Of a stretch of 32,000 nt of DNA, positions 26,844-27,646 are shown one piece after another; within the stretch, counting starts at the first letter, position 1; every line of letters starts with the position of its first letter. Source of the stretch: Pseudodesulfovibrio piezophilus C1TLV30 (lineage in GTDB: Bacteria; Desulfobacterota; Desulfovibrionia; Desulfovibrionales; Desulfovibrionaceae). The translations under genes and the position numbers were made by a program. Where the stretch lies: positions 1,380,001 through 1,412,000 of the forward strand of contig NC_020409.1 in the NCBI RefSeq assembly GCF_000341895.1, read 5' to 3'. A model generated the notes under the pieces. That model was not told the origin of the DNA and ran no database searches. It worked only from the letters and a program-made list of their open reading frames with translations.

Positions 26844-27395
26844 GATTCCTTTGGCGGAATTATAGCGGACACCAATCCATGCCTGTGCGTACCCATCGGC
26901 TTTGCGGGCGGCCTGCATGACCGCGATCTTGGTTTCGTGAGATTCGGCTGGCGGGACTACGACACCTTCACCGGCAGATGGACCGCACCCGATCCCATCG
27001 GGGACAGGGGCGGTGATCCAGACTGGTATGGGTATTGTCTGGATGATCCGGTCAACGGGGTGGACCCGTTTAGTTTGTTTCAAATCATCGGCGATGGTCC
27101 CGGTGGCAGGATCGGCGGCGGTATAATCGGCGGGGCGATTTCAGGTGCCATCGATGGAGGCATCACCATGGGGCCTTTTGGCGCTTTGACTGGCGCTGCT
27201 GTCGGCGGTGCGCTTGGTGGATTGTGGTCTGTTGTCGATGAGATACCCAATAATCCATCCAACAATTCTCCCGGCGGCAGTGGCGGTTCCAGTTCAGGGT
27301 CGTCAGGGCCAGGAAGTGGGTCAGATTCCTCTGGCGGTGGTAGTACTTCCGGTGGAGAAGGGTATGACGGTGGTGGCGGATGGTACGGTAGATAA
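26844..27395 (+). pseudogene. orphan RHS C-terminal cassette 2 (74 aa of core end plus glycine-zipper / Gly-Ser-rich tip CT2), no ATG start
   Basis: The open frame begins right after TGA 26841. It reads FGGIIADTNP...GFAGGLHDRDLGFVRFGWRDYDTFTGRWTAPDPIGDRGGDPDWYGYCLDDPVNGVDPFSL. The tip then reads GGRIGGGIIGGAISGAIDGGITMGPFGALTGAAVGGALGGLW and ends in a GSGGSSSGSSGPGSGS... tail. Only a GTG at 26937 is available as a start. Confidence 0.75.
26848..27068 (+). repeat. RHS core-end repeat, copy 2
   Basis: See copy 1 at 25670-25890. Confidence 0.9.
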
Positions 27396-27426
27396 ATACC
27401 AATATGGACAATGCCATGAGGAATAA

Positions 27427-27646
27427 AATGAATTGTACAGAGTGTGACGGGAAAATCCATAAATTGGATAAACGGATTGGAGGCCTAGTATGTATAGCCT
27501 TGGGCCTAGTAACCAGTCTCAGCGTATCTATGGATAATCCTTTTCATTGTACCAGGCTTGATACTTTTACTGTCTAGGCCCAGATATAAATTCTGGTGCC
27601 CACGCTGTAAAAAGATGGTTTCACCCAAAGAAGTCAAAGGGATCTA
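27427..27646 (+). pseudogene. small split zinc-ribbon two-TM protein, frameshifted; candidate immunity for CT2
   Basis: ATG 27427 has RBS GAGGA. Frame 1 reads MNCTECDGKIHKLDKRIGGLVCIALGLVTSLSV... and stops at 27574. Frame 2, open from 27512, reads ...LWIILFIVPGLILLLSRPRYKFWCPRCKKMVSPKEVKGI*. Joined, these give CxxC, TM, TM, CxxC. A terminator follows at 27650-27685. Confidence 0.4.

Follow-up and report, generated by a model that had tools for sequence, protein, structure and literature searches.

The list of non-enzymatic cargoes of RHS/YD proteins is short and includes Tse5-CT and the C-terminal domain of BiTLP. Tse5-CT is an Rhs-borne pore former whose immunity protein, Tsi5, has two transmembrane segments (PMC9637101). 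In P. aeruginosa this hydrophobic depolarising toxin lies at the RHS C-terminus, after the DPxGL motif of Tse5 (RhsP1), a PAAR-like/T6SS effector of 1317 residues, and Tsi5, a small inner-membrane protein with two predicted transmembrane helices, is encoded directly downstream (PMC9637101; PMC10684867). The C-terminal domain of the Bacillus protein BiTLP is about 93 aa long and hydrophobic, with one predicted transmembrane segment; it is toxic, and permeabilises cells to propidium iodide, only when exported to the periplasm (PMC13018210). BiTLP as a whole (PDB 9PT5/9IFO) has 2237 aa with an FN-plug, NHL and a full YD shell, and its immunity gene lies downstream. Glycine-zipper depolarising toxins are also borne by LXG proteins (PMC12744356). 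In EsxX, TelE and TspA (LXG/T7SS), in the CdiA-CT ionophores and in CdzC/CdzD, a C-terminal helix with GxxxG repeats is needed for depolarisation. The membrane-bound proteins ExiCD, TsaI, CdiI and CdzI protect against external toxin, and orphan immunity genes are common (PMC12744356; PMC11630599; PMC5380434). Tox-WTIP is a predicted two-helix pore-forming tip on RHS proteins, and Imm17 and Imm-CdiI are immunity proteins built of two transmembrane helices (PMC3482391). Finally, LITAF/SIMPLE (PF10601), described as conserved in eukaryotes, is a zinc-ribbon domain in which a hydrophobic segment inserted into the membrane lies between two Cys pairs, and both of its ends are cytosolic (PMC5142333).

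Here we describe a cassette in Pseudodesulfovibrio piezophilus C1TLV30, at 26844-27647 of the window, by which we mean the whole stretch of 32,000 nucleotides that was analysed. We consider it likely that this is a pseudogenised orphan toxin-immunity cassette, of the pore-forming kind, in an RHS/YD polymorphic-toxin locus. As intact copies in related sulfate-reducing bacteria show, its tip and the mini-protein encoded behind it belong to small undescribed families of a familiar kind, and on the best reading the pair may be compared with Tse5/Tsi5 and with the C-terminal domain of BiTLP.

Results

Organization of the locus

The main gene of the locus (Table 1) is a pseudogene: its frame is interrupted by a TAA (25354-25356) at a codon that specifies Tyr in homologs (DYRLLK) and is TAC in the sister strain L002 (related loci and strains are given L numbers). 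It matches the Rhs_assc_core model TIGR03696 with E=9e-16 (8.5e-18 for the L012 protein), which places it among RHS cores ending in PxxxxDPxGL, although the orphan copy in the window reads DPFSL. Main genes in related loci encode 388-485 aa and start 10-25 residues before ...DGRIVEKTETV. These mini-RHS carriers consist of about 300 aa of YD repeats, and they lack both a YD shell of full size, which would take some 1000 aa or more, and a trafficking domain at the N-terminus (PAAR, signal, TLP superfold). Among solved structures the core is closest to the shell end of BiTLP, residues 1856-2144 of 2237 (E=1.7e-39), and no secretion-system genes were found in the 32-kb window. The candidate immunity protein of the main gene's tip, CT1, has no Pfam family match, and a CT1-like tip followed by a 179-aa gene in L004 (8347-9410) matches the window's CT1 pair. 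CT1 and the orphan tip CT2 are different tips at one locus.

Table 1. Features of the RHS locus in the window.
Feature	Position	Strand	Basis
Main mini-RHS gene with different tip CT1, 415 codons	25000..26247	+	translation; homologs
Candidate CT1 immunity gene, 178 aa, N-terminal hydrophobic segment	26299..26835	+	ORF list
Duplicated RHS core end, 236 nt, 93% identical to 25666-25901	26844..27079	+	repeat search; pairwise alignment
Orphan RHS C-terminal module CT2	26844..27395	+	translation; ORF list
Degenerate cleavage motif DPFSL	27063..27077	+	alignment; sister-strain difference list
Conserved tip-entry motif FQIIGDGPGGR	27078..27110	+	alignments
Glycine-zipper domain: helix 1 RIGGGIIGGAISGAIDGGITM, hinge MGP, helix 2 FGALTGAAVGGALGGLWSVV	27102..27236	+	conservation, substitution bias, hydropathy
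Conserved DEIPNNP junction after zipper	27237..27257	+	alignments
Gly/Ser low-complexity tail, 45 residues, ending GYDGGGGWYGR, and stop codon	27258..27395	+	translation
GAGGA ribosome-binding site, 5 nt before mini-gene ATG	27418..27422	+	sequence; conserved in L001
Mini-gene N-terminal half: CxxC (C3, C6), basic segment, helix 1	27428..27518	+	alignment; ATG 27428
Mini-gene C-terminal half, +1 frame: helix 2, RPRYKFW-CPRC, basic tail, stop 27645-27647	27519..27647	+	
Terminator-like hairpin (AAAGGCCAACT...AGTTGGCCTTTT) closing cassette	27650..27685	+	folding: -21.5 kcal/mol, z=-2.95

CT2 starts immediately behind an in-frame TGA (26841-26843) and retains the last ~78 residues of the RHS core, and the core-end copy is the recombination handle of this orphan module. 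Between the TGA and the internal Met of ITMGP there is no ATG, as the preliminary description of the DNA had pointed out. At least 10 different tips stand behind the same core in related loci, each of them followed by a small ORF; this combination of a variable tip, a cognate small gene and shared core-end homology is that of an RHS orphan module. The cleavage motif owes its degenerate form to codon 27072-27074, which is AGT in the window and GGT in the sister strains L002/L003 (DPFGL), and homologs have DPxGL. Downstream, the stop codon of the mini-gene extends one base beyond 27646, where the cassette had been taken to end. The mini-gene of L013 is followed by sequence similar to the terminator-like hairpin of the window, and a search of 24500-28300 with Rfam gave no RNA family.

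The glycine-zipper tip and its tail

Read in the forward frame from 26844, the module gives ...DPDWYGYCLDDPVNGVDPFSL, then FQIIGDGPGGRIGGGIIGGAISGAIDGGITMGPFGALTGAAVGGALGGLWSVVDEIPNNP, and then the Gly/Ser tail with its GGGGWYGR end. The tail has 45 residues and the stop is at 27393-27395. This agrees with the earlier reading of tip and tail, except that eight residues conserved in homologs, FQIIGDGP, had been omitted from the tip. In the sister strains L002/L003, 27084-27110 is deleted in frame. A Pro-rich antisense ORF (27080-27460, reverse strand) was rejected as the mirror of the GGN codons, and the codon-position bias backs the forward frame.

The repeated GxxxG/A motifs that had been reported are borne out: in each zipper helix, four Gly spaced i+4 form a chain, a pattern which only 3% of composition-preserving shuffles match. 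The pattern is retained in four homologs (67-75% identity), as two four-Gly chains in L012 and L019 and as one chain of five in L020, and the tip contains the consecutive (G/A/S)xxxGxxxG by which glycine-zipper membrane peptides are recognized. No part of the tip is better conserved than the zipper (mean column identity 83% over four tips); zipper differences by codon position, 145:89:327, are mostly at position 3, and the family is under purifying selection. The mean hydropathy of the proposed membrane-inserting zipper (1.0-1.5) is moderate and below the usual transmembrane cut-off, and glycine-zipper Pfam models span the whole zipper with scores below their gathering thresholds: PF05433 with 14.4 bits against 24.2 (best E=0.036), PF13488 with 13.5 against 25 and PF13441 with 11.4 against 28.9. 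No Pfam or NCBIfam family matched the tip at threshold, and no PDB chain was found by sequence at E<=10. The AF2 model of the orphan tip, of low confidence (pLDDT 43), has helices at the zipper positions and a disordered tail.

Full tips have tails of 27 to 49 residues, and in the contig-cut L013 fragment the tail reaches 62, but its end is conserved as GGYDGGGGWYGR or YGRW[SF]GR. No tandem DNA repeat was detected in it by TRF. Class IIb microcin-like siderophore tails carry a terminal Ser, and this identity was rejected for a tail that ends in Gly-Arg. The end ...GNSGYGR is seen in L010 on another kind of mini-RHS tip. In the variant L001, a lipoprotein-like signal peptide is joined to the last zipper turn and the tail only.

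The mini-protein gene and its deletion

Behind the tip, one frame of the mini-ORF gives MNCTECDGK...LVTS and the +1 frame gives SAYLWIILFIVPGLILLLSRPRYKFWCPRCKKMVSPKEVKGI*, with the switch at 27518/27519. The break had been located correctly, between 27511 and 27529, but it had been taken for a 1-nt frameshift. In comparison with L001 and L004 it is a deletion of 38 nt at the junction 27518|27519, by which the 13 codons of the loop that joins the two helices, LRLDPELSFRFAG, were lost, so that no single-base change can undo it. The CxxC-two helices-CxxC protein that had been proposed is indeed present as remnants in two frames, but repair by one nucleotide produces a single hydrophobic stretch of ~37 residues instead of two helices. 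In both halves the codon-position differences lie mainly at position 3 (138:97:244 for the N-terminal and 106:72:237 for the C-terminal half).

Do the two halves belong to one protein? They do so in at least 9 sequence-distinct homologs of 82-91 aa, which settles this point of the preliminary description in its favour. In nine intact members the LITAF-type arrangement of an N-terminal and a C-terminal CxxC, C3-x2-C6 and W69-C70-x2-C73, is invariant, and so are D14, K15, L31, S38, W48, V54, P55, L59, R65, Y66, K74 and V77. Two hydrophobic helices (about 17-33 and 41-61) are separated by a polar loop; in the AF2 model (pLDDT 68) the helices span residues 9-30 and 39-61, and residues 68-77 form a beta-hairpin. 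Lys and Arg number 5 in the N-terminal segment, 2 in the loop and 7 in the C-terminal segment, a distribution that fits an N-in/C-in topology. Neither the nine intact homologs nor the repaired window protein matched Pfam or NCBIfam at threshold, a profile search of PDB sequences gave no match at E<=10, and Foldseek searches of PDB and BFVD with the AF2 model returned nothing below E=1, generic helical hairpins only.

Pairing in related loci

Fully intact pairs were found in three loci (L012, L019, L020), in each of which a complete mini-RHS of ~390-420 aa with the same tip is followed after 19-37 nt by a mini-protein of 82-91 aa. The core of the earlier proposal holds, namely that a glycine-zipper toxin tip has as its partner a small CxxC...CxxC protein of the immunity type, embedded in the membrane. 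Every zipper tip found (window, L004-9, L012, L019, L020, L021/22, L023) precedes a member of the mini-protein family at this distance, and tail remnants are paired with it too (L001, L013, L010/11). A spacing of 19-37 nt was counted in 9 loci. Tip and mini-protein also co-vary: tails ending GGYDGGGGWYGR occur with mini-proteins of the MNC[TSD][EV]C type, and those ending YGRW[SF]GR with the MKCNQCQ type. The mini-gene survives beside toxin stubs (L010/11, L021/22). Behind mini-RHS genes it also closes arrays of small ORFs with two helices, and there no toxin accompanies it (L014/15, L016-18). A position downstream of the toxin, co-variation with it and occurrence as orphan or in arrays are the marks of the immunity-protein class, and the mini-protein has all of them. 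Other small two-helix CxxC...CxxC ORFs are found in arrays at L010 9245-9571 and L016 2045-2380.

Discussion

The tip and the mini-protein resemble a toxin and its immunity protein in anatomy, in conserved pairing and in co-variation, and a mechanism can be suggested for their working form. In the intact form seen in related loci, a mini-RHS protein of ~390-420 aa ends in DPxGL, behind which a tip of ~90-110 aa would be released. This tip begins with the glycine-zipper hairpin of two helices; the EIPNDP junction follows, and then a Gly/Ser(/Asp) tail, disordered and with terminal W-x-G-R. We hypothesize that the hairpin inserts into the inner membrane of the target cell from the periplasmic side, and that inserted hairpins would oligomerise through their GxxxG faces and dissipate the membrane potential. 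The cognate immunity protein, encoded 19-37 nt downstream of the tip gene, may form an N-in/C-in transmembrane hairpin with both CxxC pairs together on the cytoplasmic face, where they would probably bind one zinc ion. Its short periplasmic loop and its helices might then intercept the zipper within the membrane.

In comparison with Tse5, the carrier described here is far smaller (~400 aa) and has no trafficking domain, the tip has a long Gly/Ser tail, and no sequence similarity between the two toxins was detected in PDB at E<=10, where the deposited Tse5 chains may lack the C-terminal domain; paired CxxC motifs have not been reported for Tsi5. The mini-RHS proteins match only the last ~290 aa of BiTLP, which is from Bacillus and not from Desulfovibrionaceae. 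When the L012 protein is aligned with HMMER, the match continues weakly, with low posterior, into the C-terminal domain of BiTLP (residues 313-359 of the query); similarity to this domain alone is not significant. EsxX, TelE, TspA, CdiA-CT and CdzC/CdzD use other delivery scaffolds and have no detectable sequence relationship to the tip, and for none of them has an immunity protein with a split knuckle of four Cys, or a W-x-G-R Gly/Ser tail, been described. The glycine-zipper Pfam families (PF05433 Rick_17kDa_Anti / 2TM, PF13488 Gly-zipper_Omp, PF13441 YMGG) and PF10439 Bacteriocin_IIc share the two-helix Gly-rich hairpin with GGxxxGGxxxG, but all of their matches to the tip were sub-threshold, and they are mostly outer-membrane lipoproteins or leader-peptide bacteriocins and not RHS tips. 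By the motif definitions of Zhang et al. 2012 (PMC3482391), Tox-WTIP was rejected, since RxxR and Wx[ST]IP are absent from the tip, which has one Arg (GGRIGGG) and reads LWSVVDEIP. Imm17 was rejected as well: WxW and the inter-helix R are absent from the mini-protein, and there was no Pfam match to the Tox-WTIP, Imm17 or Imm-CdiI families listed. Weak matches to LITAF PF10601 were obtained (E=0.007 for P0006, 0.31 for the repaired window protein), but only two of the nine mini-protein members matched the model, and below threshold (best 16.9 bits against 23.8). However, the hydrophobic region of LITAF has 22 residues and does not cross the membrane (PMC5142333), whereas that of the mini-protein has ~45 residues in two helices with a polar loop, and Foldseek gave a LITAF fold no support.

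Could the zipper be active in the membrane without being an ion channel? The tip might be a contact-dependent bacteriocin that aggregates with itself and is retained on the surface, like Caulobacter CdzC/CdzD, or an element for translocation or anchoring as in Tde1, in which case the Gly/Ser tail with its W-x-G-R end would be the functional or receptor-binding part. There are precedents for both: CdzC/D are glycine-zipper proteins that act through surface aggregates (PMC5380434), and the zipper of Tde1 serves translocation (PMC10240207). Tails of different lengths keep the terminal motif, a different tip in L010 has the ...GNSGYGR end, and L001 keeps the tail with almost no zipper, a fusion that a pure pore model does not predict and that counts against it. 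We nevertheless regard this explanation as unlikely, because no homolog has a cargo domain after the zipper, conservation within the tip is highest in the zipper, and a partner that is itself integral to the membrane would suit a target there. Far less probable still is that the Gly-rich region is a mere low-complexity linker whose true toxin domain was lost from the orphan. Its composition (36% Gly), the missing Pfam match and the plain decay of the orphan would suit a linker, but the three intact homologs of full length, and several orphans with them, share one terminal motif and have the mini-gene directly behind it, which contradicts it already, and zipper substitutions are biased to position 3. 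The preliminary description had itself named a linker before a lost domain as the finding that would overturn it, but the homologous tips all share one C-terminal end, directly before the mini-gene, so that no further domain has been lost.

The mini-protein, in turn, might not confer immunity but serve the toxin in the membrane, as its chaperone or in its export, or else be a second toxin or a regulator of the zinc-ribbon kind. Zinc-ribbon membrane proteins are often regulators or anti-sigma factors, and the further two-helix CxxC...CxxC ORFs in the L010 and L016 arrays would agree with such an accessory role. We think it improbable, since the mini-gene has the canonical immunity position 19-37 nt past the toxin stop, its product co-varies with the toxin subtype, and orphan copies are retained both in immunity-like arrays and where the toxin has been deleted; a protein needed for toxin export would have no use there. 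The thought that its broken frame is a sequencing or assembly artefact, the gene being intact in the organism, deserves hardly any credence. A gap of 38 nt is not a homopolymer slip, and it is common to two independent metagenome assemblies of sister strains, 99.2-99.3% identical to the window and thus differing from it at about 0.7-0.8% of positions, so that it is not an assembly error.

A bolder combination, which is doubtful as a whole and which we offer as speculation, has three parts. The mini-protein would be a previously undescribed immunity class in which a cytoplasmic Cys4 zinc knuckle, formed by the chain ends, clamps a transmembrane hairpin. The clamped hairpin would be a LITAF-like topology arisen independently in bacteria, and it is within the membrane that it would act against the pore-forming glycine zipper. 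The toxin would ride on a mini-RHS of ~400 aa that corresponds to the last third only of a YD shell. Such a protein cannot form a closed cocoon alone, and it may therefore cap a shell encoded elsewhere, from which it could detach as a TcC-like piece, or take another route; the Gly/Ser tail ending W-x-G-R might then be a handle for delivery or uptake. With its ~85 aa, four invariant Cys and a predicted periplasmic loop of 13 residues, the immunity protein is unusually small and tractable, and it could be used for asking how membrane-embedded immunity proteins block pore formers. The glycine-zipper tip, for its part, would be an addition to the list of non-enzymatic cargoes.

In the genome studied here the cassette is a recombination reserve behind the main gene, and it is dead, since the module has no start codon, DPxGL is mutated to DPFSL and the immunity gene has lost its loop and its frame. 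The earlier conclusion that both partners are silenced therefore stands, although one of its grounds does not. Orphan RHS modules are normally without an ATG, and the missing ATG is by itself no evidence of silencing. Better evidence of decay is provided by DPFSL, by the nonsense codon of the main gene and by the sister strains, whose difference list holds lesions of their own, independent of those in the window. The entire locus is decaying. For this genome the cassette is a fossil without function, and its annotation as a pseudogene is appropriate, while the loop deletion and the independent sister-strain lesions form a stepwise record of how an orphan cassette decays. A scan of a genome collection with a 3-sequence alignment yielded one locus, and a metagenome scan with the zipper profile one further locus only, on the same scaffold, with no other delivery scaffold seen in a strict pattern search. 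Neither partner of the toxin-immunity pair carries an annotation. The pair is rare, with 13 clusters of the mini-protein among 5.8 billion proteins, and most of its occurrences are in Pseudodesulfovibrio-like bacteria and in metagenomes from marine and other environments.

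The orphan module and its glycine-zipper tip

The stretch from 26844 to 27395 is organised like an orphan RHS C-terminal module (CT2). Its first 236 nt (26844-27079) are a direct repeat, 93% identical, of 25666-25901, the RHS core end of the gene immediately 5' of it, and its translation passes from the core end (...PFGGIIADTNP...GFVRFGWRDYDTFTGRWTAPDPIGDRGGDPDWYGYCLDDPVNGVDPFSL) through FQIIGDGPGGRIGGGIIGGAISGAIDGGITMGPFGALTGAAVGGALGGLWSVVDEIPNNP to a 45-residue Gly/Ser tail which closes with GYDGGGGWYGR (stop codon 27393-27395). A TGA lies in frame at 26841-26843, and in the translation from 26844 onward there is no ATG ahead of the internal Met of ITMGP. 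In this genome, CT2 and the mini-gene behind it are an ordinary decayed orphan cassette.

Coordinates of the features discussed (window positions unless a related locus, L, is named)
Feature	Position	Strand	Remark
Orphan CT2 frame	26844-27395	+	continues the YD/RHS reading frame (translation)
Mini-gene start	ATG 27428	+	32 nt past CT2 stop; preceded by GAGGA; opens MNCTECDGKIHKLDKRIGGLVCIALGLVTS
Mini-gene C-terminal half	from 27519, +1 frame	+	reads SAYLWIILFIVPGLILLLSRPRYKFWCPRCKKMVSPKEVKGI, then stop 27645-27647
Terminator-like hairpin	27650-27685		3' of mini-gene
Pro-rich antisense ORF, 126 aa	27080-27460	-	overlaps tip; complement of GGN codons
Mini-RHS carriers	25000-26247; L012 1204-2469; L019 3813-4979; L020 3821-5011; L010 7659-9116; L014 2047-3363
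tRNA-SeC	17486-17579
IS200-like transposase, split phage-type integrase, Fic-domain fragments, IS5-family transposase fragments	18185-18637, 21962-23220, 24357-24717, 28212-29101	-

With the tip as query we recovered two proteins, P0003, which is another orphan RHS fragment, and P0004, and the contigs of homologs of the downstream mini-protein yielded three complete genes, in loci L012 (421 aa), L019 (388 aa) and L020 (396 aa). These three share one architecture: DPxGL, [FY]Q[IL][IL]GDGPGG, helix 1, an MGP hinge, helix 2 with an invariant VGGALGGL, and EIPN[DN]P, followed by a low-complexity tail of 27-49 residues that ends in GGYDGGGGWYGR or YGRW[SF]GR. Over the 60-residue zipper domain the mean column identity is 83%, and nucleotide differences fall on codon positions 1, 2 and 3 as 145:89:327, a bias indicative of purifying selection in the plus frame. 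Each zipper helix has four glycines spaced i+4, a pattern kept in the homologs and matched by only 3% of composition-preserving shuffles; mean hydropathy is 1.0-1.5. In a Pfam scan all matches of the tip to the glycine-zipper families and to Bacteriocin_IIc stayed below threshold, which places it outside the Pfam zipper families. The AF2 model of the orphan tip (pLDDT 43) is uninformative; it puts helices on both zipper segments, and the tail comes out disordered. Could the Gly-rich region be only a linker to a domain lost here, as the preliminary description had allowed? This reading fails because no homolog of the tip continues beyond the terminal motif, and judged from the alignments the tip is a conserved domain rather than a linker. 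We also considered the Pro-rich antisense ORF as a gene and rejected it as a shadow of the Gly codons, since the codon-position bias favours the plus frame. Equivalent antisense ORFs are present opposite every homologous tip.

Lesions of the cassette and decay of the locus

DNA alignment of the window mini-gene with L001 and L004 revealed a clean 38-nt gap between 27518 and 27519, and not the 1-nt frameshift proposed initially; in other respects (tip, tail and the halves of the mini-ORF) that description of the sequence was accurate. The deletion removes 13 codons (LRLDPELSFRFAG in the intact homolog P0001), that is, the polar loop connecting the pair of hydrophobic helices, including the family-invariant L31 and S38. 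One-base repair restores the frame and fuses the helices into a hydrophobic stretch of ~37 residues; it would give back the frame, not the protein. The same deletion is found in L002 and L003, JGI metagenome contigs of sister strains that are 99.2-99.3% identical to the window and not identical in sequence to it. The deletion is therefore genuine and predates the divergence of these strains.

The other lesions differ between strains. The main mini-RHS gene (25000-26247) is interrupted by a TAA in frame at 25354-25356, a codon that encodes Tyr in homologs; L002 has TAC (Tyr) at this site and, instead, a +1 T insertion equivalent to 25215, so that the gene was inactivated independently in the sister strains. 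The cleavage motif is DPFSL in the window (27072-27074 AGT, as against GGT) versus DPFGL in L002/L003 and DPxGL in all homologs, whereas L002/L003 have lost 27 nt in frame (27084-27110), the conserved IIGDGPGGR that the window keeps. The orphan tip thus decays by a different route in each strain, and the entire RHS locus in the window is decaying. Loss of the immunity gene is thus an old event common to the window and L002/L003; the remaining lesions are recent and arose independently. The nearby tRNA-SeC, followed by transposase, integrase and Fic remnants, fits a degraded mobile island as the setting of the locus. No secretion-system genes were found in the window, and no Rfam family matches 24500-28300.

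The main gene carries a different tip, CT1 (25902-26244; ...HEHGFYEDGTGDNVG...NNCQDYADALRERY), with a 178-aa ORF downstream at 26299-26835. Neither has a Pfam family, and the pair recurs in L004 (8347-9410), there 3' of a glycine-zipper cassette. Elsewhere in the window, a 344-aa ORF at 5588-6622 (minus strand) matches Pfam NADase_transloc / F5_F8 type C (E=5e-14); it sits among housekeeping genes (MoeA, AdoHcyase) and is unrelated to the cassette.

The mini-protein as candidate immunity partner

The mini-protein family is rare. A word-indexed search gave the intact P0001 (84 aa, 57% identity over 97% of the query), exhaustive phmmer against 1.84 billion representative proteins gave 7 matches, and a profile search of 5.8 billion proteins gave 13. 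The named sources are a Pseudodesulfovibrio MAG (L013) and marine and other environmental metagenomes; P0007, labelled Pseudodesulfovibrio sp. at NCBI, shares the 4.03-Mb contig CP182342.1 with L014. That the two halves form one protein elsewhere was borne out by nine intact homologs (82-95 aa), which align without difficulty and are invariant at C3, C6, D14, K15, L31, S38, W48, V54, P55, L59, R65, Y66, W69, C70, C73, K74 and V77. No Pfam or NCBIfam model matches at threshold; most members show weak zinc-ribbon matches at the C-terminal knuckle, zf-LITAF-like in only two of the nine. AF2 (pLDDT 68) predicts helices at 9-30 and 39-61 and a beta-hairpin at 68-77, and Foldseek with this model against PDB and BFVD returned nothing significant. 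The N-terminal segment has 5 Lys+Arg, the loop 2 and the C-terminal segment 7, a distribution in keeping with an N-in/C-in hairpin whose two CxxC pairs are cytoplasmic, where they might bind zinc.

Among the tips counted (window, L004-9, L012, L019, L020, L021/22 and L023, the last found independently by a metagenome scan with the zipper profile), every one is followed 19-37 nt 3' by a mini-protein gene. Intact mini-proteins adjoin similar Gly-rich tips in L012, L019 and L020, and tail remnants in L001, L013 and L010/11 likewise precede the gene. Tail type tracks mini-protein subtype, GGGGWYGR with MNC[TSD][EV]C and YGRW[SF]GR with MKCNQCQ. The mini-gene is retained beside toxin stubs in L010/11 and L021/22, and in two loci (L014/15 and L016-18) a lone mini-gene ends arrays of small two-helix ORFs 3' of a mini-RHS gene. 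Such a position, co-variation with the toxin and persistence as an orphan are what comparative analysis normally takes to mark a cognate immunity gene, the role we assign to it on these grounds.

Ahead of the intact mini-gene of L001, the ORF at 673-954 has a lipoprotein-like signal peptide (…LAGLCAC…) and a Gly/Ser tail ending GGGGWYGR. Of the zipper it retains the last turn alone, and it represents a deletion chimera or else a separate secreted form. Small ORFs of mini-RHS arrays in L010 (9245-9571, 108 aa) and L016 (2045-2380, 111 aa) encode two hydrophobic helices and a CxxC...CxxC zinc-ribbon-like end, both CxxC pairs being C-terminal. In this lineage, candidate immunity proteins seem repeatedly to be membrane proteins bearing a Cys4 site.

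A possible mechanism and related systems

Beyond the anatomy, conservation, pairing and lesions established here, we infer that the cassette acts in the manner of pore-forming polymorphic-toxin pairs. Autoproteolysis at DPxGL would free a tip of ~100 residues, which would reach the periplasm of a neighbouring cell; its helical hairpin would insert in the inner membrane and oligomerise via the GxxxG faces, and the oligomer would collapse the membrane potential. With its Cys4 site as a clamp at the cytoplasmic face, the immunity hairpin would use its helices and periplasmic loop to bind the zipper, or cap it, inside the membrane. Three sets of precedents lend support: Tse5-CT/Tsi5, a pore former borne on Rhs whose immunity protein has two TM (PMC9637101), LXG toxins with a glycine zipper, which have membrane immunity proteins (PMC12744356), and the BiTLP C-terminal domain, a small hydrophobic YD-shell cargo that causes growth inhibition and propidium iodide entry only when exported (PMC13018210). 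The initial interpretation (zipper tip, membrane partner, decayed cassette) was largely right, except for the nature of the lesion.

By its core domain the cassette belongs to the RHS/YD class. The full shell and any N-terminal trafficking domain are absent here. The defining motifs of Tox-WTIP and of Imm17 are absent, and the mini-protein differs from LITAF in a hydrophobic region that is too long and bipartite, and misses the threshold. The families of the tip and of the mini-protein are small, unannotated newcomers within a well-known kind of system, of note chiefly for the small membrane immunity protein with its four Cys and for the mini-RHS carrier.

The mini-RHS carrier

The carriers (388-485 aa) all begin 10-25 residues ahead of ...DGRIVEKTETV, and their alignment to a 2237-aa teneurin-like YD shell (PDB 9pt5) is confined to its last ~290 residues; the nearest solved relative of their core is the BiTLP shell end (E=1.7e-39, residues 1856-2144 of 2237). 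They are YD fragments of ~300 residues, with neither an N-terminal trafficking domain nor conserved neighbours. Such a fragment cannot form a closed cocoon by itself, and it might therefore serve as a detachable cap, like TcC, or represent a long orphan that has been conserved. The L010 carrier has a different tip, charged and helical, whose end, ...GGSYGDTSNPNGNSGYGR, is a Gly/Ser/Asn-rich stretch closed by Y-G-R. As this end resembles the W-Y-G-R of the zipper tips, the motif at the C-terminus may be a property of the carrier system and not of a single toxin.
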